Below, piece after piece: positions 8,399-54,316 of a stretch of 64,000 nucleotides of DNA (position 1 is its first letter; the number at the start of each line of letters is the position of its first letter). Under the pieces are notes generated by a model. It saw only the letters and a list, made by a program, of their open reading frames with translations. It ran no database searches and was not told the DNA's origin. Origin of the DNA: Candidatus Latescibacterota bacterium (GTDB lineage: Bacteria > Latescibacterota > UBA2968 > GCA-2709665); the NCBI GenBank assembly GCA_965219995.1, contig CBDCOX010000002.1, forward strand, positions 5,024,001-5,088,000, written 5' to 3'. A program made the position numbers and the translations under genes.

Positions 8399-8538
8399 GG
8401 TATCCCTCCGGTGCAAAAGATATCGTCATCAAGTACGCGTAATGTATCCAATTTCGGCCCTGAAGGCAAAATCAATCGGCCGTGTACCGGAATTACATTA
8501 CCTGAATATCGCCAGACATCCGGGTCCGACCTGGCGTT

Positions 8539-19500: not shown

Positions 19501-21531
19501 CTAACTGCCAACCTGCGATCCGAAGGCCTTCGAAAAAATCAGAAAATCTGAAAAGCCAATCTCACCGTCCTCGTCCAAGTCGAACGTGGGATCGAAGTCT
19601 TCGTCGGATGACGTCGCGCCAAACGCGCTCGCGAATGCGATGAAATCAGGGAACACAACCGCCCCGTCGCGGTCAAAATCCGGAGAAGGCGGATCCCCTT
19701 CGACGACGGTTATTCGGCGGAAATATTCAGAAATATAAGTCACCCCATTCTGCCTTACGCCCAAATTAAGGAAAACTTCGCCGGTTTCTCTTGACGTAAA
19801 AGAGATGTTTTTGCTGAATCGACCGTTTGTGACCGTCGCGAGAATGACTTTCTCCCATTCGTCGTGCTCAAAATGCAATTTGACCGCGTTGGAAATAGAC
19901 GAATCGGACACCGTGCCGCTGATCCGTATGCCCTCTCCCGTTCTGAATTGGACAGGTAGTGGCGGTTCAAAGCGAGCTTTGGGCGTGTAACCTCTCGGTA
20001 CATCCAAACGTGGCCGCCAATTCTTCGGGATTGGGATGAATTGTGCGCGAGTCTCGCCTTTCGGATCGACTGTAATGGTCAGCGGAATTCTGCCTCCATC
20101 TCCAACAATGCGTACGTAGGCTGAGGAGAGCTGGTAAACGAACCCGTTGATGGTGAGCCCTCCGGATGAATCGGGCTTGACGGCATCATTATAGCCGTCG
20201 TGCTGGTACCCTCCTTCAGGCCAGACGATGTGTTCTTCGGGGAGGGGGAAAGCCCGTCCCTGGGAAATGTTGTCTGCGAGAGGTGGCGTCGTATAGTTAA
20301 ACCTGGCGTTTAGGCCCAATCCACTCAAAAACAGCCTTAAAACGTGCCTTTCGAAAATGTCTGCGATCGGTTGTCCAATCACGTTTTCGACGTTTGAAAT
20401 TCCAGTCCTTTGTGTCTGTACGAGCCTTGTCAGAACACCCGATCCAAACTCCTCGACGGCGCTGCGCAGAAACATATAGGCGGCGCCCCGTCGGTACGAG
20501 TTTGGAGAAGACAATGCTCCTAGAGCGCCGCTATGTGTATTATCGAGGAAGTTGCCGATCCACCTGTGGTTTGTCTTGTCATTCTCGCCGATCAGGTCTT
20601 CAGCAACATGCGACAACCCTTCATTGAGCCAGATATGCTCTGAGTTTCCCTTTCGGACGAGCACACGCTGGTTGAAGTTGATGAGGTGCTGGAATTCGTG
20701 AGCGATCACCGCATCGAACTTGCGAGGTTCGAGACCTGGATTGACGTAGAACATATCGGACCGATTGCCGTTGCCTCCCTGGCTTGCCGGAAGCAATGCC
20801 AAGGCATCGAACATTCCGGCCTTGGAGGCAAAGATAACGTCTGGGTCAGGATCCATGAGGTGGGTGTAAAGGAAATGGATTTTGCCGTCGTTGTCGACGT
20901 CTGATCCGTCTCCGAACGTCGAGGTGAGGATGGGATAGGTCTTTCTGCTGAAGCGGTCTATATGCGCCTGGATCTGCACCTTGCTGACGCGGCTGATGTC
21001 GGCAATATCCACGTATGCGATTGCACGCTGGCTCGTTGCGACGAGAACGGCGGTAATCGTGGTATCTTCATCTATAATCTGGCACGCATAGCCTGGAAAG
21101 ACGAACTTCCTGTTGCTGCCGATCTCTTGAGGAACGGCCTTGGCCGCGTATGGACGAAAGCCGCCGGACGCCTGTAGTCGGCGTGCGAGTTCCTGTTCCT
21201 GCTCGCGAAGCTTGCTCTTAAGGCTCATGCCGTTAGGGAGAGATGCTGACGGTATTTCAACAGGATGACGGGCGACTGCCGGTTGAGAATCCCCGTAGGC
21301 TGCGGTTACGGAGAAGCCAAACGGACTGCGTAATCCCCACGGACCCGGTTCGGCGTCAGTTCGTGTCGAATAGAGGATCAACTGATAGTCGCGGTCTGAA
21401 AAGTCAAGGGCTACTGTCGTTGACCCTTCAGCAAGATCGACCCTAAAGGGTTCGCCGATTTCCTGGGAGTGGGTGGCGTGAGAGCAAAATAACAGCAAGA
21501 GCAAACCACAGGCAGAGTGCCACATATCCAC
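19501..21531 (-). CDS. secreted gluzincin metallopeptidase (M30/hyicolysin-like) with C-terminal paired EF-hand/dockerin-like motif
   Basis: Signal peptide; DVDNDGKI; HEFQH...WLNEGLS zinc site; DFDRDGAVVFPDF...DLDEDGEIGFSDF; start may be ATG 21525. Confidence 0.8.
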   Translation of the reverse strand: MDMWHSACGLLLLLFCSHATHSQEIGEPFRVDLAEGSTTVALDFSDRDYQLILYSTRTDAEPGPWGLRSPFGFSVTAAYGDSQPAVARHPVEIPSASLPNGMSLKSKLREQEQELARRLQASGGFRPYAAKAVPQEIGSNRKFVFPGYACQIIDEDTTITAVLVATSQRAIAYVDIADISRVSKVQIQAHIDRFSRKTYPILTSTFGDGSDVDNDGKIHFLYTHLMDPDPDVIFASKAGMFDALALLPASQGGNGNRSDMFYVNPGLEPRKFDAVIAHEFQHLINFNQRVLVRKGNSEHIWLNEGLSHVAEDLIGENDKTNHRWIGNFLDNTHSGALGALSSPNSYRRGAAYMFLRSAVEEFGSGVLTRLVQTQRTGISNVENVIGQPIADIFERHVLRLFLSGLGLNARFNYTTPPLADNISQGRAFPLPEEHIVWPEGGYQHDGYNDAVKPDSSGGLTINGFVYQLSSAYVRIVGDGGRIPLTITVDPKGETRAQFIPIPKNWRPRLDVPRGYTPKARFEPPLPVQFRTGEGIRISGTVSDSSISNAVKLHFEHDEWEKVILATVTNGRFSKNISFTSRETGEVFLNLGVRQNGVTYISEYFRRITVVEGDPPSPDFDRDGAVVFPDFIAFASAFGATSSDEDFDPTFDLDEDGEIGFSDFLIFSKAFGSQVGS

Positions 21532-21876: not shown

Positions 21877-21893
21877 CCTTTTGCCGTTTGCCC

Positions 21894-21921
21894 TTGACAA
21901 AGCCGGTCGCCGACGTATATT
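21894..21921 (+). promoter_or_regulatory. sigma70 promoter of the cysM operon
   Basis: TTGACA-N16-TATATT. Confidence 0.6.
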
Positions 21922-22018
21922 GTTTTTGCTGCTTGGTCCCGGGCACCACGGGGCCATTTTTGTACGTGATCGAAGCGTGAGTCTTTCTCCCGCCCGAACG
22001 GCCTCGAAGGGGTTTTCT

Positions 22019-22957
22019 TTGGAACACCAGGTCTTGAGTACGGACGTCGGTTCCCGGATTCAGCCGACCATCGTCGAGCACGTCGGCAGGACGCCGTTGT
22101 TGCGCATCCGGAAGTTCGCGGACCACCTGGACGGCGTTGAGATTTACGCGAAAATGGAGATGTTCAATCCGGGCGGATCGGTCAAGGACCGGCCGGCGCT
22201 GCAGATGATCCGGGACGCCGTCGCATCCGGTGAGCTGACTCCGGACAAGGTGATTATCGACTCCACGTCCGGGAATACGGGCATCGCCTACGCAATGATC
22301 GGCGCGGCGCTGGGGTACCGGGTGGAACTGGTGATGCCCGGCAGCGTGAGCGTGGAACGCAGGCACGTGATCCAGGCGTACGGGGCCAGCCTCGTTCTGA
22401 GCGATCCGCTGGAAGGCTCCGACGGCGCCATTCTCAAGTGCAGGGAGATTCTCGCGGCGAATCCGGATCGGTATTACAAGCCGGACCAGTACAATAACCC
22501 CTCGAATCCCAGGGCGCACTATCTGCAGACCGCGCCCGAAATCTGGCGGCAGACGCGCGGCCGCGTGACCCATTTCGTGACGACCCTCGGCACCAGCGGC
22601 ACGTTGATCGGCACCGGCCGGCGGCTGAAGGAATACAACCCCGAAATCCAGATTATCGCCGTGGAGCCGCCCGAGTTTCACGGAATCGAAGGACTCAAGA
22701 ATATGGACGTGTCCATCGTGCCGGGCATTTACGACCCTTCGGTGTGGGATCACAAGATCCGCGTGGAGACCGAAGACGCCTATGCGGCCGCCAGGCGGCT
22801 GACGCGCGAGCTGGGCGTTCCCGCCGGACAGTCGTGCGGCGCGGCCTTCGCCGGGGCGTTGCACGTGGCCGAGGATGCGGGAGAAGGGGTGGTGGTTACT
22901 CTGTTCCCGGACAGCGGCGAGAAATACATGAGCACGCCGCTCTGGCGCCTGGACTGA
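22019..22957 (+). CDS. cysM: PLP-dependent cysteine synthase, CysM-like (probably sulfur-carrier dependent)
   Basis: NPGGSVKDR, STSGNTG, DQYNNPSN, GTSGT, HGIEGLK; adjacent to mec and cysO; start uncertain (TTG 22019 with GAAGGGG SD). Confidence 0.85.
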   Translation: MEHQVLSTDVGSRIQPTIVEHVGRTPLLRIRKFADHLDGVEIYAKMEMFNPGGSVKDRPALQMIRDAVASGELTPDKVIIDSTSGNTGIAYAMIGAALGYRVELVMPGSVSVERRHVIQAYGASLVLSDPLEGSDGAILKCREILAANPDRYYKPDQYNNPSNPRAHYLQTAPEIWRQTRGRVTHFVTTLGTSGTLIGTGRRLKEYNPEIQIIAVEPPEFHGIEGLKNMDVSIVPGIYDPSVWDHKIRVETEDAYAAARRLTRELGVPAGQSCGAAFAGALHVAEDAGEGVVVTLFPDSGEKYMSTPLWRLD

Positions 22958-22969
22958 AGGAGAGCGGAT

Positions 22970-23437
22970 TTGGATCGGGCGGTCTGGAAAGAGATTCACG
23001 ATCACGCACGAAGGGATTACCCTGCCGAATGCTGCGGGATTGTCGCGGAAGGGACGGACGGCGGTTTTCAGGTGCATCCTTGCGAGAACATTCAGGACCG
23101 GCTGCACGCGCGAAACCCGGAGGAACATCCTCGGACCTCGAAAAACGCCTATCGGATGGACGATCTGGAAGTCCACTGGATTTTTACGGAGACGGAGAAG
23201 GCGGGCGGACGCGTGGTCGCGTTCTATCATTCGCACATCGACTGCGGCGCGTATTTTTCCGAGGAGGACCGCCAGGCCGCCATGTTCCTGGATCAGCCGG
23301 CCTTTCCCGACGTGGTGTACCTGGTGGTCTCCGTGGTGGACGGCGCCGTACGTGGCGCGGCGGGGTTCGCGTGGGACGAGAAGGCGAAGACATTTGCGGA
23401 ATCGGCGCTGGAGGGCTACGATCCGGCAATCCGATAG
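22970..23437 (+). CDS. mec: JAMM/MPN+ (M67) metallopeptidase, Mec-like
   Basis: YPAECCG and YHSHIDCGAYFSEED (E...HSH-x7-S-xx-D); TTG start with AAGGAG. Confidence 0.88.
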   Translation: MDRAVWKEIHDHARRDYPAECCGIVAEGTDGGFQVHPCENIQDRLHARNPEEHPRTSKNAYRMDDLEVHWIFTETEKAGGRVVAFYHSHIDCGAYFSEEDRQAAMFLDQPAFPDVVYLVVSVVDGAVRGAAGFAWDEKAKTFAESALEGYDPAIR

Positions 23438-23564
23438 AGTCCGGATCGCGGGTGCGTGTGGCGAGGAACAAATAGCGTTCGGGCGCGAGGAAAAACGGAC
23501 AATCCGACGCGTTCATACGACAAATGCGGCTACTCAATTCAACCACAATCAGGAGGCTTGTACG

Positions 23565-23849
23565 ATGGGCTTGACCGTACGAATTCCGACGCCGCTGCGA
23601 AAATTCACGGGCGACCGCGCGGACGTTGAAGCCGATGGCTCGACGCTGGGAGAATTGCTCGACGACCTGGAAGCCAGACATCCGGGCATCAAGGAGAATC
23701 TGGTCGATGCGGACACCGGGGGCCTGCGCCGGTTTGTGAACGTATACGTCAACGACGAGGACGTCCGTTTTCTCGAGGGTACGGAGACGCCGCTCAAAGA
23801 CGGCGATAGCATAACCATTGTTCCGGCCATCGCCGGAGGGCGATGTTAG
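23565..23849 (+). CDS. cysO: ubiquitin-like sulfur carrier (CysO/MoaD family) ending GG-RC
   Basis: VRIPTPLRK, RRFVNVYVNDEDVRFL, IVPAIAGG then RC-stop; SD AGGAGG. Confidence 0.88.
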   Translation: MGLTVRIPTPLRKFTGDRADVEADGSTLGELLDDLEARHPGIKENLVDADTGGLRRFVNVYVNDEDVRFLEGTETPLKDGDSITIVPAIAGGRC

Positions 23850-23895
23850 CTTTACTGCCGTAGCCCATCTCCGCCATGCTGTTCGGAGGCCGCCG

Positions 23896-24324
23896 ATGCA
23901 GATCTCCTCGAAGGGAAACTACGGATTGCGTGCCGTTCTGGATCTGGCGCTGCACTACGGCGAGGGGGTCGTGCAGAGTGCGGACATCGCGACCCGACAG
24001 GACATTCCGGAGTCCTATCTTGCACAGTTGCTGAACCTGCTCCGCAATGCCGGGCTGGTGCGGAGCGTCAGGGGTCCTCGGGGCGGCCACGAGCTGGTCC
24101 GCCGGCCTGAAGACGTTACCGTGGGGGCGGTCCTGCAGGTCCTCGAGGGGCCGGTCCGGTTGTCCGGAGAAACGCCGGAAGGCGAGCACGGGACAAAGGA
24201 CGTTCTGCGGGAAGTCTATGAACGGCTGGAGGCGGCTGTGGAGGAAGTCCTGGATTCGGTCACGTTCGGCGATCTCTGCGCGAAATATCGAACCAAGAGC
24301 GGGCGAATTGTCTTTCGGATCTAG
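23896..24324 (+). CDS. Rrf2-family transcriptional regulator, CymR-like (no Fe-S Cys triad)
   Basis: ISSKGNYGLRA, IPESYLAQLL, SVRGPRGG; C-terminus IVFRI. Confidence 0.88.
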   Translation: MQISSKGNYGLRAVLDLALHYGEGVVQSADIATRQDIPESYLAQLLNLLRNAGLVRSVRGPRGGHELVRRPEDVTVGAVLQVLEGPVRLSGETPEGEHGTKDVLREVYERLEAAVEEVLDSVTFGDLCAKYRTKSGRIVFRI

Positions 24325-24329
24325 ATATT

Positions 24330-25280
24330 ATGCCCACCGCCGGAGCGTACCCATTGGATTCCCTCAGGAAGGGCGAGAGCATTCTGGATCTCATCGGCGC
24401 GACGCCCATGGTCCGCCTGAACCGGGTGGCGCGCGCTGAGGGCGCCGACGTGTGGGCCAAACTGGAGGCATTCAATCCGGCGGGCAGCGTGAAAGACCGC
24501 ACGGCGCTGGCCATGATCGAGGCGGCCGAAGCGCGCGGGGCACTGAAGCCCGGAATGAGAATCATCGAGCCCACCAGCGGGAACACGGGCATCGGGCTGG
24601 CGATGGTGGCCGCCGTGAAGGGGTACCGGCTGACGATTACCATGCCGGAGGGCGTCAGCGACGAACGCCAGAAGCTGCTCAGGGCGCTCGGCGCCGAGGT
24701 CGTGTTGACGTCGGCCTATGACGGGATGCAGGGTACCATTCAGAAAGCGCTGGAACTGGTCGAGGACGGTACGGAGTGTTATCTGCCTCAACAGTTCGAA
24801 AATCCGGCCAATCCGGACGTGCACCGTCGAACGACGGCGCGGGAGATCCTGCGGCAGATGGATGGAGCGCCCGACGTCTTCGTCGCGGGCGTGGGCACAG
24901 GCGGGACGGTCACCGGCGTGGGAGAGGTCCTGAAGGCGGAATTTCCGGAAACCTGCATTGTCGGCGTCGAACCCCAGGATTCCGCGGTGTTGTCCGGCGG
25001 CCAAGCCGGACCCACGGAAATCGACGGGCTTGGCGCCGGGATGGTCCCCGACGTGCTCAATGTGGATATCCTCGACCGCGTCGTTCCGGTGACCAATGTT
25101 CAGGCGCGACGGATGTCGCGCAGACTGGCGAGAGAAGAGGGCATCCTGGCCGGCATTTCATCCGGCGCCGCGGCCCATGCCGCCACAGCGATTGCCCGCC
25201 CGATGTCGCCGGATAAACGTGTGGTCGTGATCCTGCCGGATACGGGTGAACGTTATATGGACGCTTATCTCTTTGCGTAA
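24330..25280 (+). CDS. cysK: cysteine synthase A-like protein
   Basis: NPAGSVKDR, EPTSGNTG, QQFENPAN, GVGTGGT, GISSGA, DTGERY. Confidence 0.9.
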   Translation: MPTAGAYPLDSLRKGESILDLIGATPMVRLNRVARAEGADVWAKLEAFNPAGSVKDRTALAMIEAAEARGALKPGMRIIEPTSGNTGIGLAMVAAVKGYRLTITMPEGVSDERQKLLRALGAEVVLTSAYDGMQGTIQKALELVEDGTECYLPQQFENPANPDVHRRTTAREILRQMDGAPDVFVAGVGTGGTVTGVGEVLKAEFPETCIVGVEPQDSAVLSGGQAGPTEIDGLGAGMVPDVLNVDILDRVVPVTNVQARRMSRRLAREEGILAGISSGAAAHAATAIARPMSPDKRVVVILPDTGERYMDAYLFA

Positions 25281-35193: not shown

Positions 35194-36321
35194 TCAGGAT
35201 GGCGGCGTGAGGCGGGAGGCGGCGGTCATTTCCCGCACCACCGACCGGGCATCGCCGGTCCTGTTCAGGATCTCCACCTGCCGCTGGGCCCAGGTCGGCC
35301 TGGCCGCCAGGTCCAGATTTCTCTCCAGGTATGAAGCGCAATCCAGGGCATCGGCGGTCGACTTCAGCTGATCCACAAGGCGCCGGACCATTTCGCGCGC
35401 CGGCTGCAACTGGTAGGTATCGGAGTCAACCAGTTGGGCATCGAGTCCGTAACGGGCGGCGCGCCACTTGTTCTGCCGGATGAGCATCGGGTGGCAGTCG
35501 TGCTGATAGGCGCCGTGGTCGATGTGGTCGGAGAGGTATTTTACAAGGGACTGGATCAGGGCGACCAGGCCCAGGGTATCGTGGAAGTTGCCTGGAATGT
35601 CGCAGATGCGGATTTCGACCGTACCGAATTTGTTGTGGGGTCGAACGTCCCACCAGATTTCCCGGATGGTCTCGATATAGCCGGTTTCCACGAGGTGGTT
35701 CACCAGCCAGACGTATTCACTCCAGTTGCGCATCAGCGGCGGCAGCCCGGCGGTGGGCAGGCCGTCCATGATCTTGGACCGCCAGGAGCAGACCCCGGTA
35801 TTCCGGCCCTCCCAGAAGGGGCTGTTGCAGCTCGACGCCAGCAGGAGCGGCATGTAACGCAGGATGAATTCGCAGATCATGACCGCCTTGTCGCCGCTGT
35901 CCACGCCCACGTGCACGTGCAGGCCGAACGTGACCAGCTGGCGCGCCGTGTCCTGCAGCAGATCCACCAGGCCGGCGTATCGCTTGTTGGGCGTGATCTC
36001 CTGATCGCGCCACGTCGAGAACGGATGGGTTGCGGACCAGAAGAGTCTCACGTTCTCTCGATCGGCAACTGCCTCGAGGGCGCACAGCTTCTCTCTGAGA
36101 TCCGCTTCGACCTCCTTGAGGTTCATGCAGACGTCGGAGTTGATTTCCACGTAACACTGCATCAACTCCGGCTTGATCGTTCCCTCGAGTTGCGGTGGGA
36201 CCCGCGCGATGAGCCCCTGGCTGGCGCTTCGCAGGGCCATCGTGCGACAGTCAACGAGCGCAAGCTCGATCTCCACGCCGACCGTGGGTTGCAGGCTGGG
36301 GTTGAACTCCATTCGGCTCAT
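35194..36321 (-). CDS. YbdK-family carboxylate-amine ligase (glutamate-cysteine ligase type 2)
   Basis: TVGVEIE, FGLHVHVG, WWDVRP, GTVEIRICD, NKWRAARYG; ATGA overlap with upstream gene. Confidence 0.92.
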   Translation of the reverse strand: MSRMEFNPSLQPTVGVEIELALVDCRTMALRSASQGLIARVPPQLEGTIKPELMQCYVEINSDVCMNLKEVEADLREKLCALEAVADRENVRLFWSATHPFSTWRDQEITPNKRYAGLVDLLQDTARQLVTFGLHVHVGVDSGDKAVMICEFILRYMPLLLASSCNSPFWEGRNTGVCSWRSKIMDGLPTAGLPPLMRNWSEYVWLVNHLVETGYIETIREIWWDVRPHNKFGTVEIRICDIPGNFHDTLGLVALIQSLVKYLSDHIDHGAYQHDCHPMLIRQNKWRAARYGLDAQLVDSDTYQLQPAREMVRRLVDQLKSTADALDCASYLERNLDLAARPTWAQRQVEILNRTGDARSVVREMTAASRLTPPS

Positions 36322-37556
36322 TGATCTGCCTCTTTGTCGTGAGTTTTCGGTTCCGACCAGTACACGATCGCGCGCGCCAGAATCTTCGCGCCGATGCCCA
36401 GCGCGCGTTCGTCGATGTCGAAATCCGGTGAATGCAGGCCCGTCACCGGCGTTCCGGGAGCCGAGCATCCGAGGCGAAACAGGCTGCCTGGAACGTGGTT
36501 GAGATAGTGGGCGAAATCATCGCCTCCCATACTGGGCTGTGCGATATACTGGACCCGATCGGGTCCGAGCAGATCGACCGCGCAGTCCCGGATCAGATCG
36601 GTCAGGTCCGGATCGTTCAGGACCGATGGAGGCCCCGATCTGAACGTGATGTCGATTTCCGTGCCGGACGTCCGCGACACCCCCTCCCCGACCTCCCGCA
36701 CCCGTTCCAGGGCCCGGCGGCGCGCATCTGTATCGAGGCTGCGTACGGTGCCCCTGAGCACCGCGCGATCGGGAATCGCATTGTAACGGCTTCCGGCTGT
36801 CACGGAACCGACCGTAAGGACCACGGTATGGCGCGGATCGAGCGACCTCGGCACCGCCACGTAAAACGCATTGATCAACTGGGCTGCCGCGGCAATGGGA
36901 TCCCTGGACTCATAGGGTCGTGCGGCGTGGCCGCCGCTGCCCCGGACGAGCACGTGCATCTCATCGCAATGCGCGGTCAGGACCCCCGATCGATGCCCGA
37001 TGGTTCCGGCGGGGCGCGACGGGTCCACGTGGAGCGCCAGCATCGCGTTGACGCCGTGGAGCGCACCGGCTTCGATCATTTCCAGCGCGCCCTGGTTGGT
37101 CTCTTCGGCCGGCTGAAAGACGGCCCGCCACGAAGCGGGCCAGGGCAAACTTCCGGATTTTCCGGCGGCGTCGAGCGCCAGAGCGGCCCCCAGCACCGCT
37201 GCGGCATGGGCGTCGTGGCCGCAGGCGTGCATCGCCCCGCGCACGCTGCTGCGATAGTCGACGGCTTTGGCGTCCTGGATGGGCAGTGCGTCCAGGTCGG
37301 CCCTCATGGCGATTCTCGGCCCGGACCCGTTCCCGGCAGACTCGGCGATCACCCCGCGTCCCGCGGGGCCCGTGCGGGCGTGGAAGCCGTCGGACGCCAA
37401 CTGCTCTTCCAGATACCGGGTGGTCTCCGTTTCCTCGCCGCTTACCTCGGGATGGGTATGAAGATGCCTCCTGGTCTGCACCATGCGGTCGTGCAACGCA
37501 TCGACGGTACGGTCGAGTTGTGTGATCCAGGACGCCTGATTTGTTGTCGTATTCAT
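36318..37556 (-). CDS. M20D-family amidohydrolase
   Basis: HPEVSGEE, RADLDAL, MHACGHD, FQPAEE, GGHAARP, LHSP. Confidence 0.92.
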   Translation of the reverse strand: MNTTTNQASWITQLDRTVDALHDRMVQTRRHLHTHPEVSGEETETTRYLEEQLASDGFHARTGPAGRGVIAESAGNGSGPRIAMRADLDALPIQDAKAVDYRSSVRGAMHACGHDAHAAAVLGAALALDAAGKSGSLPWPASWRAVFQPAEETNQGALEMIEAGALHGVNAMLALHVDPSRPAGTIGHRSGVLTAHCDEMHVLVRGSGGHAARPYESRDPIAAAAQLINAFYVAVPRSLDPRHTVVLTVGSVTAGSRYNAIPDRAVLRGTVRSLDTDARRRALERVREVGEGVSRTSGTEIDITFRSGPPSVLNDPDLTDLIRDCAVDLLGPDRVQYIAQPSMGGDDFAHYLNHVPGSLFRLGCSAPGTPVTGLHSPDFDIDERALGIGAKILARAIVYWSEPKTHDKEADQ

Positions 37557-37644
37557 AAGGAAAGCAGGACCGTTATGCCTGCATCGGCGGCGGTATCGTA
37601 AGGAATCCCAGGTCGGCACAAAAAAGCCGGATTGAACAAATGAC

Positions 37645-37673
37645 GACGGGACAGGCTTTGCGCCTGCCCCGTT
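37645..37673. terminator. hairpin ending the dap-pck-transaldolase unit
   Basis: ACGGGACAGGC/GCCTGCCCCGT stem downstream of the 37730 stop. Confidence 0.5.
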
Positions 37674-37729
37674 TTCAATAATCCCCGGATTCCGGGAGGT
37701 GGCGGTACCGGCGCGCCAATATCAGAATG

Positions 37730-39670
37730 CTAACCCGCGACCTCTCTGGCGATGGCGACGCATTTGGCGGCGAAGGTGTCGTAGGCGGCCCGGAACTCGG
37801 CGCTGGTTTTCTGCACCGAACCGAATTCAGGCCAGTCGTCGGGTTCCAGGCCTTTGATCTGCCAGCCGGTGACGTCGATGCCGACGACGTTCTGCAGGAA
37901 GTCCTTGAGGGACGGCGTCAGGTCGTACCCGCGGCAGAAATCGGGAAGTTCGCGCAGGCGCTGGTCCACGCCGGGTTCGTAGGAATCCAGCACCGCGTCA
38001 CGAAAGTCCTCGAGGCGGAAGCCGTCGGCTTCGGATGCCTCCTGGACAGCGCGCGCGTGGTTCGGAAATTCGGTGTTGCACATGTTGGACGCGCCCAATG
38101 TGTGGAAGGAGTCTTCGGGAATGCGTTTGGAAGCAGGAAGGACGTCCATGGAATCCACGATCCACTTTGCCTGGTCGTCCGTGACGCCGTAGGTCTTGCA
38201 AAGGTGTGCGACCCATTTCGGCCGGTTTTCCGGGCTGAAGAAAACCCAGTAGACGCGGCGGGCCACGAGGGTGCCCGCTTTTTTCAGATCTTCTTCCAGC
38301 AGCAGGATCGCGTCCGCGGACTGTCCGGCGGCTTCGGCGGCCTCCAGGACGATGGGGTGATCGAGGGTCTTGAGGTTCGCGTACGCGCAGACTGCCCGGG
38401 CTCTGTCGGCCAGAGATCCATCGTCTTCTTGCCCGACGTCCAGGTCGGCGGCCAGGGCATCCAGGAGGTCGGTCGCCCTGCCGTCACCCGCCCGCGCCGC
38501 CGCCGCGAGGAAGATCTTCTCGGCTTCGACTTCCCGCAGGTGACTCACGAACCTGCCGCCCATATTGGTTTCGTACGTGCGCACGACCTGGCCGTCCCCC
38601 TTTGCGGCGCGCGCCTTGCCCTCGAACGCATCCAGGATCAGCTGGACTTCCTGGGCCACGGTGTAGACCACGGTATTGTTGGAACCGACGGAATTGCCGT
38701 TGAGTGTCGTTGTTATTTTTCGGGCGGCCTCGTGGCTGGCGGCGACCTTGAAGACGATGTTCGGATTCACCCGGCCGGAGCCCTCGCCCAGGCCCAGCAG
38801 GCGGTCGTATCCTTCGAGGAAGTCGGCGGCCAGCCCGTACGCGTTTCGCGCGTCCTCGATACTCGCGTCGGCCTGATCCGCGATGTTGGGATTGAGCTGG
38901 AAGCTGACCATATAGTCCTTGAGGTCCGTATGCACCGCGAGCGGCCTGAAGATGGACAGGTTGGGCCAGAGGGCGATGAGGGTGGCCGCCATGGCGATTT
39001 CGTCGGCGTGGGCCTCGGGGTCCTGCTTCCAGTTGTCGTGCCTCGCGATTTCACATTTGAGTTGTTCGGCAAGGGAACCGTCTTCATCGAATGCCTTTGC
39101 CGCCAGTACAGGGTTGGTGGAGACCTGGCAAAATCCGTAGTGACGAAGATATTCCAGTCCTCGCGCGAAATCGTTGCCGAATTTGCAGAAGTCGTCGCCG
39201 ATCATTTCCCAGTAGACGCCACTGCGCATGTGGCGTTTGAGCAGCGTCAGAAAAGAACCGCCCGGACTTGCCGGCTTCAGGTCCGCTTCGATGCGTTCAG
39301 CGAGGAGGCCGGAGAGGCTGTCGCTCCCGTTGACGGACTTCATGTCGGCGAGGAATTCAGCCACGACGTCCGCCATGACGACCCCTTCGAGATCGTCGAC
39401 GGCGGAACAAACCTGCTTGAGCGCCTCGTCGGCCTCGTCCGCGCCGTACCCCACGATCTCGGCGTCGCGCCCCACAAAGTTCATGCCGAGCCGGATCAGG
39501 GTTCGGCACACCCCGGCGGCCGGGCAATCGTTATTCTGAATCGCCGACAGGAGTTCGTCCACGCGGGTGTTCAGCGTGCCGGGCTGCGGATCGATGAGAA
39601 TCCGGTCGGCGGCGGCGAGTGTCTGCCCGTTTCCGATGGCTTCCGCCACAGCTGAAACGTCGATTGCCAT
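37730..39670 (-). CDS. large transaldolase/class I aldolase-fold protein with N-terminal extension
   Basis: VSTNPVL, VSFQLNP, PNIVFKV (Schiff-base Lys), NNTVVYTVAQ, MGGR, ASKR; SD GGGAGG. Confidence 0.75.
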   Translation of the reverse strand: MAIDVSAVAEAIGNGQTLAAADRILIDPQPGTLNTRVDELLSAIQNNDCPAAGVCRTLIRLGMNFVGRDAEIVGYGADEADEALKQVCSAVDDLEGVVMADVVAEFLADMKSVNGSDSLSGLLAERIEADLKPASPGGSFLTLLKRHMRSGVYWEMIGDDFCKFGNDFARGLEYLRHYGFCQVSTNPVLAAKAFDEDGSLAEQLKCEIARHDNWKQDPEAHADEIAMAATLIALWPNLSIFRPLAVHTDLKDYMVSFQLNPNIADQADASIEDARNAYGLAADFLEGYDRLLGLGEGSGRVNPNIVFKVAASHEAARKITTTLNGNSVGSNNTVVYTVAQEVQLILDAFEGKARAAKGDGQVVRTYETNMGGRFVSHLREVEAEKIFLAAAARAGDGRATDLLDALAADLDVGQEDDGSLADRARAVCAYANLKTLDHPIVLEAAEAAGQSADAILLLEEDLKKAGTLVARRVYWVFFSPENRPKWVAHLCKTYGVTDDQAKWIVDSMDVLPASKRIPEDSFHTLGASNMCNTEFPNHARAVQEASEADGFRLEDFRDAVLDSYEPGVDQRLRELPDFCRGYDLTPSLKDFLQNVVGIDVTGWQIKGLEPDDWPEFGSVQKTSAEFRAAYDTFAAKCVAIAREVAG

Positions 39671-39784
39671 TCTGGGCCTCCCTTCACGTCACATAATGTT
39701 TCCGTTGCGTCCCATATCTCGCGTATTGCGCATCTGCGTTAACGCCGGGGAGCCGTCTGGTACCTGCTTGCTTCGGGAGAACCG

Positions 39785-40591
39785 TTACTCAATGCCCAGC
39801 ACGTCCCGCATGGTGAACATTCCCGGGGGCGCGTTCGCGACAAACCGGATGGCCTCGAGGACGCCCACGCCGTAGGAATCCCGGCTCTGCGCGCGGTGGA
39901 CCAGCTGGAAGATCTCGCCCGTGCCGCCGAAGATGACGGTATGTTCTCCGGCCAGGTCCCCGGCGCGGATGGCGTGGATGCCGATTTCGTCACCGGTGCG
40001 TGCGCCGACTTCCCCGTGGCGTCCATAGAGAGCCACGTCCTCCAGGTTCCGGCCCAGGCCCGCTGCCGCTGCCTTCGCCAGCGCGAGGGCGGTACCGCTG
40101 GGCGCATCCGTCTTGAAATGGTGATGCGCCTCGACGATTTCCACGTCGTACCCCCGGCCCATCATGCGCGCGGCGTCTTCGACGAGCTTCGTGAGTACGG
40201 TAACGCCGATGCTGAAGCTTGGCGCAAAGACACAGGCGACGTCCTTCAGGGCCATTTCGAATTCGGCAAGTTGCTCTGAGGACATGCCCGTGGTGCCCAC
40301 CACCATGGGCCTGCCCGCTTTCCCGGCGGTCCGTGCGGCGTCCAGCGTGCCGTCCGGTGGCGCGGTAAAGGCGACGACCACGTCGGCATTTTCGACGACG
40401 GAATCCAGGCTGTCGACAACGTGGTGACCGGTGCGCGCGGTACCCAGGATCTCCCCGATTTCTCGTCCGATGGCCGGGTTGCCCGGAGCCTCCACGCCGC
40501 CGACGATTTCGAGGTCGTCGGATTCCATGGCAAGATGGGCGATGCGTCCGCACATGCGTCCCGCGATGCCACAGATAACCAGGTTTGTCAT
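39785..40591 (-). CDS. dapB: 4-hydroxy-tetrahydrodipicolinate reductase
   Basis: GIAGRMC, VGTTG, EAHHHFKTDAPSGTA, RAGDLAGEH. Confidence 0.95.
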   Translation of the reverse strand: MTNLVICGIAGRMCGRIAHLAMESDDLEIVGGVEAPGNPAIGREIGEILGTARTGHHVVDSLDSVVENADVVVAFTAPPDGTLDAARTAGKAGRPMVVGTTGMSSEQLAEFEMALKDVACVFAPSFSIGVTVLTKLVEDAARMMGRGYDVEIVEAHHHFKTDAPSGTALALAKAAAAGLGRNLEDVALYGRHGEVGARTGDEIGIHAIRAGDLAGEHTVIFGGTGEIFQLVHRAQSRDSYGVGVLEAIRFVANAPPGMFTMRDVLGIE

Positions 40592-47843: not shown

Positions 47844-48290
47844 CTATCGTCCGGTACTCCCGAATCCGCCGCGATCCGGTGCGCCGAGGGTTTCGGTCTC
47901 TGTCCAGTCGGCCTGGACGATACGGACGAAAATCCCCTGTGCGAGCCGTTCGCGGCGCTGAACGTTCACCGGACGACCTGTAAAGTTGTAGACCTGGACG
48001 TGGATCTCGTCGTTTGGACCCCGGTAATCCTGATCGACAATGCCCACGCCGTTCGGTACCATCAGGCCCTTTCTGCGCGGGAGGCTGCTGCGGGCCGCAA
48101 GCAGGAGCATGTAACCGGGAGGTACCGCAACGATGAGATTGGCCGGAACAAGACGGATTTCGCCCGGCGGGACGACCATGTCCTTCCGGCAAAGCAGATC
48201 GAATCCGACCGAACCCGGTGTCTGGTGGCGCGGCAGAGGCAGCGTCGGGTCCACTCGTCTGACCTGGATTTTCTTGACTGGCTCGCTCAG
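47844..48290 (-). CDS. dut: dUTP diphosphatase
   Basis: GSVGFDL, RSSL, GIVDQDYRG, RLAQ, RGGFGSTG; start probably CTG 48290 (ORF track uses GTG 48254). Confidence 0.92.
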   Translation of the reverse strand: MSEPVKKIQVRRVDPTLPLPRHQTPGSVGFDLLCRKDMVVPPGEIRLVPANLIVAVPPGYMLLLAARSSLPRRKGLMVPNGVGIVDQDYRGPNDEIHVQVYNFTGRPVNVQRRERLAQGIFVRIVQADWTETETLGAPDRGGFGSTGR

Positions 48291-48329
48291 TATCCCGCTT
48301 CCTTTCGGTGCTGGACTGTCGATGTGACA

Positions 48330-48358
48330 ATGTTAACCATCGGGTCGCGGGCTGTCAA
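48330..48358 (-). promoter_or_regulatory. sigma70 promoter of dut-ispH
   Basis: TTGACA-N17-TAACAT on the minus strand. Confidence 0.65.
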
Positions 48359-48445
48359 TAGTTTTCCTGAAATCAGCGCCGGATTCCGTCGATTCTTCCT
48401 GCCGTTATGGCTTGACATTCCGGGTTCCCGTTGCAATCATATACC

Positions 48446-48571
48446 GCATCCGCGTTTGGTGCGAAAGAGGTTACCCGAGGGGCGACGCCGGTGCCCGGAA
48501 GGCGCCTCGCGGCCGCGCGCAGGTGGGCGGTCCGGGCGGGTCCCCGGACGATCCTCAATCGCCGCGGGTGC
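48446..48571 (+). ncRNA. candidate structured 5' leader RNA, family not recognised
   Basis: Closing stem GCATCCGCG/CGCGGGTGC, then GCGA/TCGC, GAGG/CCTC, inner arms CGAGG/CCTCG and GTCCGG/CCGGAC; downstream of TTGACA at 48412. Confidence 0.35.
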
Positions 48572-48605
48572 TGGGTTGAAGTACGATCCACGAGGTGAAT
48601 TACGG

Positions 48606-50561
48606 ATGGAAAGTCGATACGAGCGGTGGACGCGTCATCTGCTGCCGCTGCCTCACGAGATCGCGTTCGAAGGCGATATTGAATGCCGACCCGAACAGGT
48701 TTCGATTGTGGTCAGGCCCGGAGCGGGCGCGGTCGAGACACATGCGGCAGCGATGCTGGAACGCCTGTGCGCCACCGGCGAGGGTCCGATGCCCGCGGGA
48801 GGGGTTTTCGAAGTCTCGATCGGGCTGGTGGAACGCGGTCCGGACGCGGATTTGCTGCGGGGGTTGCCGAATTGCAATCAGGCATATACCATCCGGCCGG
48901 AGGGGCGGCGGCGCCTCGTGCTTGCCGCGTTGGCCGATCCCGGAATTTCGTACGCGGCCCGGACACTCTGCCAGTTGCTGGAACCGATGCTGACGCCCGG
49001 AGGCATCCGCATTCCGCTCGTTTCGGTGACCGATTGGCCGGATCTGGACGAACGCGGGATGTGGAACTTTCCACCGCCGGAGGAATGGATTCCGTGGATG
49101 GCGTCAATGAAATTGAACTACGGAAAAATGGCCACCACGGAACTGTCCAGGGTGGTGCGAGGGAAGGCCAACCGCGCCAGGATCGACACAGCGCTGATGG
49201 AAAAGGCTCGCCTGCTGGGATTTCACTATGTGCCGATGATCACCCATCTGAATTTCCTGCATGAACGCGGCCTGTACCGGGCCTATCCCGAGTTGGCGGG
49301 CAAGGGCGACGGGGCGCTGGCCGGGCGGTATTTCGCTCACAAGCAGGGCAAACAGCATCGGGCGCCCTGCGCATCCAATCCCCTGCTCGTGGATATCCTG
49401 GCCGAGTGGATGTCGGACATCGCATCCCAGGGCGCGCTGGAGGTGGGCTGCTGGCTGACCGAGCGGCCCGCCCAGTGTGAATGCGGCGACTGCACGTCAC
49501 GCGGGCAGTTTGTGCTCGAAGCCAGGGCGTTCGTACACGCCTGGAAGCGGATTCGTCCCCGGTATCCCGGGTTCAACATTCGCGTGTTTCTGTCGACCAC
49601 GACGTCTGAGCGGGACTACCGGGTCGTGGCGGAGTTGCCGCCAGAGGTCAAGATCGAACGTGCATGCGCAACCGAAATGGAGCGCGTGCCGCACCTGCCC
49701 CGGGATCTGGCGGCCAATCCCCTTCTGGATCACCTTGCATCGCAGGGTCGCTGGATCGCCAGCTACGACGTGCCGATCAACGCGAACGGACGGGTGGATA
49801 CCCCCGAATTCAAGGTTCCGCAGTCGTCACCGCATCGGATCCGGGACTACGTGGGTCAGCTGATTCGCAGGCAATACAGCGGGGCCTACGGAATGATGGC
49901 GTGGGTCGGCAGGGGAAAGGAGACGTGCGGGTACAACGTCGCGGCCCTGGCGGAATATTCGTGGAACCTGAACGGACGCAGCGAACGGGAGTTCGCCGTG
50001 GCGTGGGCCACGCGGGAAGGGTATCGGGACGCCGACGCGTTCGGAGAATGGTCGGAACGGACAGGACCCGTGGCGTTCGACGTCTACGATTCCGATTTCC
50101 CGATCTGTTATTCCTGGGGCAAAGCGGCTGAGATGATTCGGCAAAAGGAGCGGCCGTATCTCGGCGAGGGCATGTTCCGTTATTTTGAAGATGAACAGGC
50201 CTTCGAGCAAAAGGCTGACGGGTGCCGCCAGGCGATCCGGATCGCTTCTGAATTCGAGCGTCCGCATTGCGCCAATGAGACACGTGTGGTGATGACCTAC
50301 GTGGAACTGGCCCGGTGCGTCTATCGCGTCGCGGAACAGGTGGCGACGTGCGACCTGGCCGACTTCGACGTTCAGACCCGGCTTCATGCCGCCCTCGAAT
50401 CGCTCGAAAAAGCAGGCCGGGACAACGTTGCGGCGATCCGAAACTGGCGGGCGGCACTGGGACCGGAACCGTGGCACGCTCGGGTCCACGATGCGATTCG
50501 AGGTACGGAGACAACCGTTGGCGAGATTGCAGGGTTCCTGCGGGATCGATATTTGTATTAG
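48606..50561 (+). CDS. cytoplasmic protein with GH20-like N-terminal domain and probable TIM barrel
   Basis: LLPLPHEI, QAYTI, YAARTLCQL, DWPDLDERG (typical GH20 domain-2 junction); CECGDC; start ATG 48606 (GAGGTG SD). Confidence 0.65.
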   Translation: MESRYERWTRHLLPLPHEIAFEGDIECRPEQVSIVVRPGAGAVETHAAAMLERLCATGEGPMPAGGVFEVSIGLVERGPDADLLRGLPNCNQAYTIRPEGRRRLVLAALADPGISYAARTLCQLLEPMLTPGGIRIPLVSVTDWPDLDERGMWNFPPPEEWIPWMASMKLNYGKMATTELSRVVRGKANRARIDTALMEKARLLGFHYVPMITHLNFLHERGLYRAYPELAGKGDGALAGRYFAHKQGKQHRAPCASNPLLVDILAEWMSDIASQGALEVGCWLTERPAQCECGDCTSRGQFVLEARAFVHAWKRIRPRYPGFNIRVFLSTTTSERDYRVVAELPPEVKIERACATEMERVPHLPRDLAANPLLDHLASQGRWIASYDVPINANGRVDTPEFKVPQSSPHRIRDYVGQLIRRQYSGAYGMMAWVGRGKETCGYNVAALAEYSWNLNGRSEREFAVAWATREGYRDADAFGEWSERTGPVAFDVYDSDFPICYSWGKAAEMIRQKERPYLGEGMFRYFEDEQAFEQKADGCRQAIRIASEFERPHCANETRVVMTYVELARCVYRVAEQVATCDLADFDVQTRLHAALESLEKAGRDNVAAIRNWRAALGPEPWHARVHDAIRGTETTVGEIAGFLRDRYLY

Positions 50562-51670: not shown

Positions 51671-54316
51671 ATGACCGCTCGTCCCGGATCGGTTGTCAAC
51701 TTCTGCAAGACGGTGTTGCCGCTTCTGCACGGGAAGACGGACGGACGACGGATTCTGCAGGACGTGCGCGAGGTTGTGGCTACCGACCGGTGGAATTCAT
51801 TCGACAGGTTCGCGGAGACCACGGCGTTTCTGGTGCGTCGTTTCGAGGAATCCGGCGCGAAGGCGGAAGTGCACACCATGCGGACCGGCGGAGCCATCGG
51901 ATCGGGGCGGTGGATCATCCATAAGGCCGCAGACGTGCGTTCCGCGACGATGGACGTGATTCGACCGGTAAGAACACGTGTCCTGGACTACAGGGAGAAT
52001 CCCTGGCACGTCATTCAGTGGAGCGACGCCACGCCGCCGGGAGGGATGGAAAACGAGCTGGCCGTCGTGGATTCAAAGGAGGCCCTGACCCGGATTCCCA
52101 GAGGCGGACTGGCCGGGAAGGTGGTGCTGACCGGTATGGATCCGCGCGGCATGTTGCGGTCCTTCTCGGAGGCCGGCGCGGCGGGGGTGGTCGCCGATCA
52201 TCCCGTACCGAATCTGCCCGACGCGACCGCGTGGACGAAATTCGGGTGGGGCGGCGTCCCCATCCAGGATGCGGCGGTCCAGATGGTTGGCCTGGTTCTA
52301 TCGGAGAACCAGGGTAAGCGACTGCGCCGTCTGCTGCGCAAGCACGGCTCATTGACGGTCCGGACAGACGTGGACATTCGTCACTACCAGGGCACGCATG
52401 ATCAGGTGAGCGGGGTGGTGCACGGTGACGCGGATCCTCAGGATGAAGTATGGGCGCTCGCGCACAGCGCGGAACCCGGCGCAATCGACAACGCGTCGGG
52501 GGTGGCGCTGGGCCTGGAAATCGCACGCGTGCTCGAGGAACTGATTGCAGCCGGTAAGCTGGCGCGGCCCAGGCGCACGATACGTCTGATGAGCGCCTAC
52601 GAGTGTCATGGGTTTTTCAAGTACCTGGAGGACACGCAGCGCCTTCAGAACCCTCTCGCCGGCGTTGTGATCGATTCGGTGGGAAGCAAACCCTCGGTTT
52701 GCGGCGGCCGGATCGAGTGGCATGCCTCGATTCCAATGTCGGCCGGCTTCGTGGACCGGTTGGGCGAGACGATCCTGACGGAAACGCTGCGGCGGCGAAA
52801 CCCCGGGTATCGCCTGTCCATGGAGCCGTTCGTGCCCACCTCAGACACGCTGATCGGGGATCCGAAGTATGGATTTCCATGTCCCTGGCTCACCACGCAC
52901 CACCATAAACCAGGCCGGGGATTCGACGCATACCACTCGTCCGCGGATACGCCGGCTCTGTTGAGCACCACGGGGCTTGCGGCGTGCGCGACAGCGATGG
53001 CGGGATATCTTTACTGGCTGGCGGACGCGGGCACGGAGGACATCGTCGACGTGGCCGCCGCGGAGACCGCTCGGACGATGGAGCGGTTAGGGGCGGGGAG
53101 CCTGTCGGTTGCACAGGTCGAATACGAACGCGAGCAGCATCGCGTGAACCTGGAGAAGCTTCATCGCTGGATGTGGGGCGGACGCCGTCGAGACGTCCTG
53201 GAGCAGTTCGCCGGGCACGAGCGCGACGTGCGGGCGTCCGCGGCGGATGCCGTCCGGGGAAAGACGCGACCGCGCAGACGGCGTGTCGAGGGCGCGGACC
53301 GGATTCCGAGGCGCACCCGTGTGTTGTCTCCTATCGGAGAAAACACGGTGCCGGAGATCGCCGGACGTATCAGCAAAACAGGACTCTCTCCCTGGGCGCT
53401 GTTCTGGGCGGATGGCAACCGGACGATTCAGGAGATTTCGCAGGCCGTGGCGTGCGAGACCGGCAATGAAGTGAAGCTGGCGAGCGTCGTCGCCTATTTC
53501 GAAGCGCACGCTGAACTGGGTTATGTGGAGCTTATCGAGAAATCGGAACGGGTGACGCGCGCGGGCCTTGCGGCGGACCTCCGTTCACTGGGTCTGGCCC
53601 GGGGCATGGACGTGATGGTGCACAGCTCCCTGTCGTCCATCGGACACGTGGCGGGCGGCGCGGATACGGTGATCGAGGCGCTGCTGGACGTGATCGGCAC
53701 GCGAGGTACACTCATGATGCCCTCGTTTCACCACCGGGCCGCACAGGTGTACAATCCGATGACGACGCCCACGACCAACGGCGCGATCCCCGATGCGTTC
53801 TGGCGGCGTCCGGACGCGGTCAGGAGCGACCATTCCACGCACGCGGTGGCGGCGGTGGGTCCCAAAGCCGAGGCCTTCTGCAGGGATCACGGCAGGAAAG
53901 GACTGTGGACGCCGGACAGCCCCATCGGCCAACTCGTACACGGCAACGGGCACGTACTGCTGCTTGGCGTCGACCACAATGCCACGACAGCCTACCACGT
54001 GGCCGAGTTATCGGTGCCCTGCGGATGCATCGACCCGTTCGGCAATTTCTACCGCGTCGTGGCGCCGGACGGGGGCGTGCGGCAGGTCAGGGGGCTGGCG
54101 TTCAGATCGGCGCTGTGTCCGGTGCCGCCGGACAAGCTGAACAGGGCGCTGGACCGCAGGGGCAAACAGCGCCGCGGAAGAGTGGGCCGGGCGGACTCGT
54201 TCTTCGTGCCGGCAATAGAGGTCTGGAAGGCTCGGCGGGACCATCTGCGGCGCGTCTGTCCGACGTGTGATATCAAACCTCGAGTCGACGCGCCGGGATC
54301 GGATAGAACACGATGA
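51671..54316 (+). CDS. fusion: M28/DUF4910-like aminopeptidase plus AAC(3)/YokD-family N-acetyltransferase
   Basis: AHSAEPGAIDNASG, AYECHG, YHSSADT; C-terminal LRSLGL, VHSSLSSIG, GTLMMPSF, SDHSTH, LLGV..TAYHVAE. Confidence 0.82.
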   Translation: MTARPGSVVNFCKTVLPLLHGKTDGRRILQDVREVVATDRWNSFDRFAETTAFLVRRFEESGAKAEVHTMRTGGAIGSGRWIIHKAADVRSATMDVIRPVRTRVLDYRENPWHVIQWSDATPPGGMENELAVVDSKEALTRIPRGGLAGKVVLTGMDPRGMLRSFSEAGAAGVVADHPVPNLPDATAWTKFGWGGVPIQDAAVQMVGLVLSENQGKRLRRLLRKHGSLTVRTDVDIRHYQGTHDQVSGVVHGDADPQDEVWALAHSAEPGAIDNASGVALGLEIARVLEELIAAGKLARPRRTIRLMSAYECHGFFKYLEDTQRLQNPLAGVVIDSVGSKPSVCGGRIEWHASIPMSAGFVDRLGETILTETLRRRNPGYRLSMEPFVPTSDTLIGDPKYGFPCPWLTTHHHKPGRGFDAYHSSADTPALLSTTGLAACATAMAGYLYWLADAGTEDIVDVAAAETARTMERLGAGSLSVAQVEYEREQHRVNLEKLHRWMWGGRRRDVLEQFAGHERDVRASAADAVRGKTRPRRRRVEGADRIPRRTRVLSPIGENTVPEIAGRISKTGLSPWALFWADGNRTIQEISQAVACETGNEVKLASVVAYFEAHAELGYVELIEKSERVTRAGLAADLRSLGLARGMDVMVHSSLSSIGHVAGGADTVIEALLDVIGTRGTLMMPSFHHRAAQVYNPMTTPTTNGAIPDAFWRRPDAVRSDHSTHAVAAVGPKAEAFCRDHGRKGLWTPDSPIGQLVHGNGHVLLLGVDHNATTAYHVAELSVPCGCIDPFGNFYRVVAPDGGVRQVRGLAFRSALCPVPPDKLNRALDRRGKQRRGRVGRADSFFVPAIEVWKARRDHLRRVCPTCDIKPRVDAPGSDRTR

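Follow-up and report, generated by a model that had tools for sequence, protein, structure and literature searches.

The window analyzed here is a 64,000-nucleotide stretch of the genome of a Candidatus Latescibacterota bacterium (assembly GCA_965219995.1, contig CBDCOX010000002.1, positions 5,024,001 to 5,088,000 of the forward strand). Its minus strand carries a gene for a 646-amino-acid (646-aa) protein which, judged by its aligned residues, is an uncharacterised transaldolase relative with neither the residue pair of classical transaldolases nor that of fructose-6-phosphate aldolase (FSA). An earlier, sequence-only reading had delimited this open reading frame (ORF) and quoted the motifs FGND (residues 164-167), TNP (185-187), VSFQLNP (255-261), PNIVFKV (303-309), NNT (331-333) and TNMGGR (368-373), all of which are exact in the ORF list and the translation, with agreeing codon coordinates. 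The gene and its parts are as follows, with conservation counted over 133 family members.

37730..39670, minus strand: transaldolase-like coding sequence, 646 aa, with an ATG start and its stop codon at 37730-37732 (ORF list and translation)
39221..39670, minus strand: N-terminal all-helical domain, residues 1-150 (DSSP helices 5-158; predicted local distance difference test score, pLDDT, ~90)
37733..39220, minus strand: transaldolase-type (beta/alpha)8 barrel with insertions, residues 151-646 (VIA-align, Foldseek)
39170..39172, minus strand: Asp167, equivalent to TalB Asp17 and FSA Asp6 (132/133 members)
39113..39115, minus strand: Asn186, equivalent to TalB Asn35 (133/133)
38897..38899, minus strand: Gln258, at the position of TalB Glu96 and FSA Gln59 (133/133)
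38747..38749, minus strand: Lys308, predicted Schiff-base lysine, equivalent to TalB Lys132 (133/133)
38672..38680, minus strand: Asn331-Asn332-Thr333, with Asn331 equivalent to TalB Asn154 (132/133) and Thr333 to TalB Thr156 (133/133)
38552..38569, minus strand: Thr368-Asn-Met370-Gly-Gly-Arg373, with Thr368 equivalent to TalB Ser176, Met370 to TalB Phe178 and FSA Tyr131, and Arg373 to the phosphate-binding Arg181 of TalB
38123..38131, minus strand: Ser514-Lys515-Arg516, probable equivalents of TalB Ser226 and Arg228 and second half of the anion site (each 133/133)

Residue equivalences were drawn from two chained hhalign profile alignments and a 35-sequence MAFFT alignment that included TalB and FsaA, using the E. 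coli K-12 TalB and FsaA sequences as references and distant relatives from an exhaustive profile search. The first hhalign step joined the 646-aa family to ~350-aa relatives that share its Gln and Met (probability 99.3%, E 1.2e-20, 321 columns), and the second joined those relatives to E. coli TalB (98.8%, E 4.7e-17, 223 columns). Direct hhalign comparison of the family with TalB gave the same pairs from N35 to T156, but with a probability of only 9.8%, and direct comparison with FsaA (47 columns, 5% probability) was too weak to use alone.

The sequence-only reading had listed the Schiff-base lysine, the TNP and NNT motifs and the arginine of GGR as retained, and hhalign and MAFFT both uphold this, pairing K308 with K132, N186 with N35, N331 with N154, T333 with T156 and R373 with R181; the last pairing is secure in MAFFT and in both hhalign steps. 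The same reading had assigned glutamine to the TalB E96 position by eye, where both chained alignments and MAFFT place Q258, and methionine to the TalB F178/FSA Y131 position, where hhalign and MAFFT place M370 (131/133 members; R373, 133/133). The first-strand aspartate, which it had called ambiguous, is resolved through the short relatives: D167 aligns in hhalign with their invariant aspartate, and in 117 of 120 cases that residue occupies the column of TalB D17. The Glu and Phe that it had attributed to transaldolases, and the Gln and Tyr to FSA, are seen in the E. coli TalB and FsaA sequences. Both transaldolase-defining residues, Glu96 and Phe178, are thus replaced in the 646-aa protein, and the FSA-type Gln59 is present with FSA Tyr131 replaced by Met; neither the Glu nor the Tyr that would have spoken for an ordinary enzyme is found at the acid/base sites, where the alignments show Gln258 and Met370. 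Assignment of Ser514 and Arg516 to TalB Ser226 and Arg228 is provisional, as it follows MAFFT and the spacing to the next conserved Gly and T.P strand, hhalign differs, and the structural model is unconfident over residues 511-534. Further invariant or near-invariant polar residues are Tyr366 (133/133), Glu367 (127/133), His377 (132/133), Lys515 (133/133) and Glu534 (133/133). Because the active-site residues are conserved in 131-133 of 133 members, the aligned Gln/Met site with its conserved lysine is not a chance pattern.

Profile searches place the protein at the edge of the known families. The comparison with the transaldolase Pfam family that the sequence-only reading had proposed gave a TAL_FSA (PF00923) match of 37.9 bits (cut-off 27), with residues 173-344 covering only profile positions 13-148 of 285. 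Against the NCBIfam transaldolase models the protein scored 26.6 bits (cut-off 367), 21.8 (233.75) and 14.9 (344), and it matched none of the NCBIfam FSA models (TIGR00875 and relatives) at E<=1. PDB sequences gave no match at E<=10 in a single-sequence search and only marginal transaldolase matches with the family profile (E 0.04-0.1).

The gene is real and under purifying selection, because variants fall mainly at third codon positions and its conservation is like that of neighboring housekeeping genes. When contigs from public runs were compared with the window, 29 of the 40 variant places listed, of 151, were third codon positions of the minus-strand frame, and at distant loci the family protein showed 68% identity against 61-65% for DapB and DHDPS (dihydrodipicolinate synthase) of the same loci. 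A Pfam scan matched no family in the overlapping plus-strand shadow ORF (37727..39655). Among 8000 scored candidates, a homologue search with the 646-aa protein returned 770 proteins at E<=0.001; the best 120 of these included full-length homologues of 59-99% identity, nearly all 635-655 aa long, under the names 'hypothetical protein', 'transaldolase' and 'transaldolase family protein'. ESM Atlas matches were uncharacterised TAL_FSA clusters only. Metagenome runs of 11 studies, from sponges, corals and marine samples, contain the stretch. In RNA data, 12-17 of its 30 bins are covered at 90-99% likeness by contigs of three libraries (two studies), although DNA can be present in such libraries.

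An AlphaFold2 model based on 27 aligned sequences (pLDDT 84.5, predicted template modeling score 0.82; low-confidence segments 511-534 and 558-563) assigns the protein to the transaldolase fold. All five Foldseek matches at E<=0.001 were transaldolases. In VIA-align, transaldolases scored Z 18.4-20.5 over 279-331 residues, including Z 19.2 for TalB (1onr) and Z 20.5 for the N. gonorrhoeae enzyme 7oey_A (root-mean-square deviation, rmsd, 3.0; 321 of 350 residues; model range 151-638), whereas short transaldolases and sulfofructose transaldolase scored ~12 and unrelated TIM barrels 8.7 or less. The structural match begins at residue 147-151, in keeping with the N-terminal helical extension of about 150 aa that the sequence-only reading had described, and a helical insertion of ~130 residues interrupts the barrel between Arg373 and Ser514. 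Folded alone, the N-terminal domain reached a pLDDT of 89.4; it had no Foldseek match at E<=0.001, and its best VIA-align score in a wide search was Z 6.9, to designed or generic helical repeats, which is below the meaningful level for helical domains. The same domain occurs in some distant relatives of 570-590 aa, whose profile matches begin at position 2-8.

The sequence-only reading had suggested a third catalytic configuration. The Gln/Met pair is real, but it is not special to the 646-aa protein: aligned sequences indicate that it characterises a far larger clade of PF00923, still unnamed, in which forms of ~350 aa are included. Distant transaldolase-like representatives (335-590 aa, plus one 1084-aa fusion) have Gln in 22/22 and Met in 22/22 by MAFFT; the divergent long-family representative P0141 has Leu there. 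Of 120 sequences related to P0238 (349 aa), 118 carry the Gln and all 120 carry the Met, three residues ahead of the arginine; P0238 itself sets Gln opposite Glu (svQvdp/siEvdp) and Met opposite Phe (vlMvgR/sfFvsR) in alignment with the C. glutamicum transaldolase 3r5e. All six Gln/Met relatives scored (P0238, P0254, P0195, P0217, P0253 and P0235) fell below the NCBIfam cut-offs. A database search with P0238 gave 3078 matches with generic names only, which may include canonical transaldolases, and searches of PDB sequences with the family and with P0238 found canonical transaldolases only. Two giant predicted proteins, P0208 (4369 aa) and P0211 (2953 aa), also contain a segment that aligns with positions 136-272 of the family profile; further domains are 2-hydroxyacid dehydrogenase and PfkB sugar kinase in P0208 and phosphoglucomutase in P0211. 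Each could be a genuine multi-enzyme protein or the product of merged gene models.

Comparison with known enzymes shows where the family departs from them. The best structural matches, the ~350-360-aa long transaldolases of N. gonorrhoeae and C. glutamicum (PDB 3clm, 7oey and 3r5e; Z 20.5 and 19.6, rmsd 3.0-3.1, 321-331 residues), share the barrel, the lysine strand motif PN[IV].[FI]K and the TNP, N.T and GR motifs, but they have Glu and Phe where the 646-aa protein has Gln258 and Met370, lack both the 150-residue N-terminal domain and the ~130-residue insertion, and are only marginally similar in sequence (profile E 0.041). TalB, half as long, has identical counterparts to its D17, N35, K132, N154, T156 and R181, a Thr for S176 and probable matches for S226 and R228, but Gln for E96 and Met for F178. 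In MAFFT, FsaA (220 aa) matches the family at the Glu96 position, where both have Gln, and in the Asp, Asn, Lys, Thr and Arg residues, and differs in its Tyr131. The nearest kin are the unnamed Gln/Met relatives of 335-590 aa (P0238, P0217 and the P0235 fusion among them), which are homologous over the whole barrel and C-terminal helices by the hhalign match above; some share the N-terminal helical domain, but they are shorter, lack the large insertion and, in the 350-aa forms, mostly have Ala for Ser226. The sulfofructose transaldolase BmSF-TAL (PDB 8c4i/8bc3) matched at Z 11.9 over 191 residues; it is short (~220 aa) and decameric. It is a transaldolase-fold enzyme that acts on a 6-substituted anionic fructose analogue instead of fructose 6-phosphate (F6P).

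In other phyla, the neighbors of the gene suggest a link with keto-uronate metabolism. Adjacency was counted over 33 non-Latescibacterota loci, leaving out L062, where no intact family ORF was called. In 14 of the 33, a UxaE-family gene (PF16257, scores up to 576 bits) shares the strand of the family gene and lies -3 to 243 nt from it, upstream in deltaproteobacterial-type loci and one Bathyarchaeia locus and downstream in those of Acidobacteriota and Armatimonadota; at a further three loci a UxaE-family gene is 0.9-6.2 kb away. Two of the UxaE-coupled loci, L045 and L051, encode family proteins 60-61% identical to the 646-aa protein. UxaE is described as the tagaturonate 3-epimerase of the UxaC-UxaE-UxuB route (PMC6978723). 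At locus L065 a bona fide glucuronate isomerase gene (498.6 bits, cut-off 387) overlaps the 3' end of the family gene, and other neighbors in these phyla are IolO-like and IolB-like genes, a 2-hydroxyacid dehydrogenase, KDPG (2-keto-3-deoxy-6-phosphogluconate) aldolase and a mannitol-dehydrogenase-family gene. Among the distant Gln/Met relatives, outside the 646-aa family, P0235 is a 1084-aa fusion of a transaldolase-like domain with UxaE; no fused form turned up in a search over the range 1132-3230 aa, though as evidence this is weak. In ketose numbering UxaE inverts C4, a carbon of the very bond that a transaldolase-type enzyme cleaves. At one locus of a Thermodesulfobacteriota metagenome-assembled genome (L068, 7408-9558), the family gene is split into ORFs of 187 and 507 aa by a frameshift, a stop or an assembly error.

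Because the lysine and the set of hydroxyl-binding residues are conserved, the 646-aa protein is very probably an active Schiff-base enzyme. With both defining residues swapped, it probably handles a different keto-sugar from that of known transaldolases. We tentatively propose, just short of an even chance, that it transfers dihydroxyacetone from, or cleaves by aldol chemistry, a fructo-configured anionic ketose, possibly D-fructuronate. Lys308 would form an imine with C2 of a 2-ketose while Asp167, Asn186, Asn331 and Thr333 hold the C1-C4 hydroxyls and Gln258 and Thr333 a catalytic water. Asp167 would then take the proton of the C4 hydroxyl, a role assumed here by analogy with TalB, and the C3-C4 bond would break. 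Arg373, together with Ser514, Lys515 and Arg516, would bind the anionic tail, whether phosphate or carboxylate. Met370 could not be expected to protonate the enamine as FSA Tyr131 does, so the three-carbon dihydroxyacetone unit would more likely be passed to an acceptor aldehyde than released; this transferase-like retention of the intermediate is suggested because Gln is present but neither Tyr nor Glu. Proton transfers would fall to Asp167, water and possibly a family-specific residue. In FSA, Tyr131 is the dominant proton shuttle and Gln59 and Thr109 hold the catalytic water (PMC13259622), and another work reports 3S,4R products for FSA and TalB F178Y, a 70-fold rise in aldolase activity in TalB F178Y, and binding of the TalB phosphate by two Arg and one Ser (PMC3962226).

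The substrate is probably other than the pair of the pentose-phosphate pathway, F6P and sedoheptulose 7-phosphate (S7P), and is most plausibly a fructo-configured (3S,4R) ketose with an anionic tail. A keto-uronate is possible but doubtful. D-fructuronate would be the leading candidate, because relatives are coupled to UxaE, an epimerase that sets exactly that C4 configuration, and its cleavage would yield tartronate semialdehyde together with F6P or dihydroxyacetone; BmSF-TAL would offer a functional precedent by analogy. In its broadest form the proposal would make the Gln/Met branch 'uronate transaldolases' that convert D-fructuronate and glyceraldehyde 3-phosphate into fructose 6-phosphate and tartronate semialdehyde, which we consider rather unlikely. 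The fructuronate would then arise either directly or, through UxaE/IolO-type epimerases, from tagaturonate or from 5-keto-L-gluconate derived from inositol. If true, this would be an undescribed kinase-free branch of hexuronate and inositol catabolism, analogous to the sulfofructose-transaldolase pathway and with a third acid/base arrangement; literature searches found no paper on the 646-aa family or on any fructuronate aldolase or transaldolase.

Several observations weigh against a keto-uronate role in the organism studied here. Its genome (98.6% complete, 7.6% contamination) has no match to UxaE (PF16257) anywhere, and UxaC was not found in it either; the other Latescibacterota-type loci have no UxaE gene within 8 kb of the family gene (0/45). 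Because of these absences, the keto-uronate link is borrowed from relatives in other phyla. Loci of 400-aa Gln/Met relatives from the same phylum, searched with a hidden Markov model built from the UxaE cluster, also had none nearby (0/9); their neighbors are carbohydrate-uptake and carbohydrate-processing genes. The neighborhood in the window is of a housekeeping kind, in the order dapA, GTP-dependent phosphoenolpyruvate carboxykinase (GTP-PEPCK), dapB, the 646-aa gene, an M20 amidohydrolase and a YbdK-type ligase, and would suit a sugar-phosphate role too, as would the flanks of the Bathyarchaeia genes, with class-1 fructose-1,6-bisphosphatase (FBPase) and an F420-type oxidoreductase. The full phosphate site of TalB seems to be retained, insecure as the assignment of S514 and R516 is, and this argues for a phosphorylated substrate; a sugar phosphate fits both that site and the FBPase and PEPCK neighbors. 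The assignment of Asp167 as base and the transferase behavior, finally, draw on analogy with TalB and FSA and not on coordinates.

What else the genome encodes bears on these readings. It has a separate canonical transaldolase of 222 aa with Glu and Phe, and in our sample of the phylum, in which proteins of the long (646-aa) form occur in 39 of 121 genomes and are confined to three families, a canonical transaldolase is present in 38 of the 39 carriers. The 646-aa protein likely has a role distinct from that of the housekeeping transaldolase. No convincing transketolase was found in the genome (weak Transketolase_N matches of 20-35 bits, and no tblastn match with E. coli TktA), nor was a phosphoketolase, and ten of ten sampled genomes of the same genus had no Transketolase_N match at E<=1e-20. 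At that threshold, 5 of the 39 long-form genomes of the phylum sample had a match, compared to 57 of the 82 without the long form. Substitution of the long form for a missing transketolase-linked pathway was nevertheless rejected as a family-wide rule, since the contrast follows clades and strong transketolase matches are present in five of five long-form genomes from five other phyla. Replacement of fructose-1,6-bisphosphate (FBP) aldolase was likewise rejected; the genome search found no class II enzyme, and a class-I FBP aldolase is present (440.7 bits). The genome also has many paralogues among its sugar-acid enzymes, with ten DHDPS-family matches and about seven UxuA-like genes (mannonate dehydratase family).

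The sequence-only reading had also raised a new reaction as a possibility. Since every other catalytic and binding residue is retained, the protein may instead carry out the usual transaldolase-type chemistry, with a different substrate or even with F6P itself. In its strictest version the protein would be a second, divergent transaldolase (EC 2.2.1.2) acting on F6P, S7P and erythrose 4-phosphate (E4P), with Gln and Met as tolerated variation and the extra domains serving assembly or regulation. We judge this unlikely. The Pfam TAL_FSA score lies above its cut-off, all TalB substrate-contacting residues except Glu96 and Phe178 are kept, Arg373 and probably Ser514 and Arg516 among them, Met is hydrophobic like Phe, and gluconeogenic neighbors recur (PEPCK at 20 Latescibacterota loci; class-1 FBPase at six Bathyarchaeia loci and L052), all of which such an enzyme would explain. 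It would, however, duplicate the Glu/Phe transaldolase that this genome and nearly all sampled carriers already have, and a transketolase that could supply S7P or E4P was not found in the genome. None of the 133 family members keeps the acid/base Glu, scores against the NCBIfam transaldolase models reach at most 26.6 bits where 233 or more is required, and the coupling and fusion to UxaE would have no rationale.

Loss of both proton-transfer residues of the known enzymes could instead mean that the Schiff-base lysine serves chemistry other than at the C3-C4 bond, such as isomerisation, epimerisation, dehydration/beta-elimination or decarboxylation, with family-specific invariant residues as acid/base. 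Candidates for these adjoin the catalytic strands (Tyr366, Glu367, His377, Lys515 and Glu534), and genes beside the family in other phyla encode isomerases and epimerases that act on keto-sugar acids. Yet Asp167 is conserved along with the whole hydroxyl-binding set, which argues against non-cleavage chemistry, and we know of no example of it in the transaldolase fold, so we regard this too as an improbable account. Still less credible, and in our view very improbable, is a non-catalytic descendant of a transaldolase, be it a pseudoenzyme, a scaffold or a regulatory protein: the canonical acid/base pair is lost, a large helical domain has been added and the local genomic context is uninformative, but the lysine and surrounding binding residues persist in 131-133 of 133 members across bacteria and archaea, the family is as conserved as DapB and DHDPS, and relatives show translational coupling, and one more distant relative a fusion, to an enzyme of the same pathway type.

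The Glu/Phe versus Gln/Tyr pair is a textbook case of one residue pair deciding between transferase and lyase chemistry, and transaldolase and FSA are workhorses of biocatalytic carbon-carbon bond formation. If active, the Gln/Met clade would extend this mechanistic picture and might widen the range of donors and acceptors. The recurring UxaE linkage, for its part, suggests that a step is missing from our account of how widespread uncultured lineages (sponge-associated Latescibacterota and Poribacteria, Acidobacteriota, Desulfobacterota-type bacteria and Bathyarchaeia) break down uronic acids or inositol.

The immediate surroundings of the 646-aa gene contain the following features.

39671..39690, minus strand: ribosome-binding site region, GGGAGG, its end ~7 nt upstream of the ATG (sequence reading)
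39785..40591, minus strand: dapB, the upstream neighbor and sole DapB gene of the genome (Pfam; NCBIfam TIGR00036, 250.7 bits, cut-off 122)
37646..37672, minus strand: terminator-like hairpin of 11 pairs (8 G-C) with a weak T tail, 58 nt 3' of the stop codon (consensus scan)
36318..37619, minus strand: M20 amidohydrolase (TIGR01891 subfamily), the downstream neighbor (Pfam, NCBIfam)

The hairpin is no more than suggestive of a terminator, since 8 such hairpins were observed in the region by the consensus scan against 7.2 expected. Of 46 Latescibacterota-type loci, counting the window, 44 have dapB as the upstream neighbor of the family gene; the arrangement in this phylum is conserved only among kin and holds little information on function.

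An M20 amidohydrolase of TIGR01891 also stands directly upstream of the family gene at the Methylomirabilales locus L061 (1264-5162), where the family protein is 41% identical, and another M20 gene lies 3 kb off at the Bathyarchaeia locus L056. Elsewhere in the window, two long ORFs matched no Pfam family at E<=1e-6 (19501-21531, minus strand, 676 aa; 48000-50561, plus strand, 853 aa). The sole Pfam match of an 881-aa ORF (51671-54316, plus strand) is a C-terminal aminoglycoside 3-N-acetyltransferase-type domain (residues 649-857); its roughly 650 N-terminal residues had no Pfam match. In the segments 21881-25280 (plus strand) and 7220-8416 (minus strand), two PALP-family enzymes and an ORF with a ThiS-like C-terminal domain (23040-23849) lie near a ThiF-rhodanese fusion, a set that looks like a sulfur-carrier-protein-dependent module for a thio-amino acid or a cofactor.

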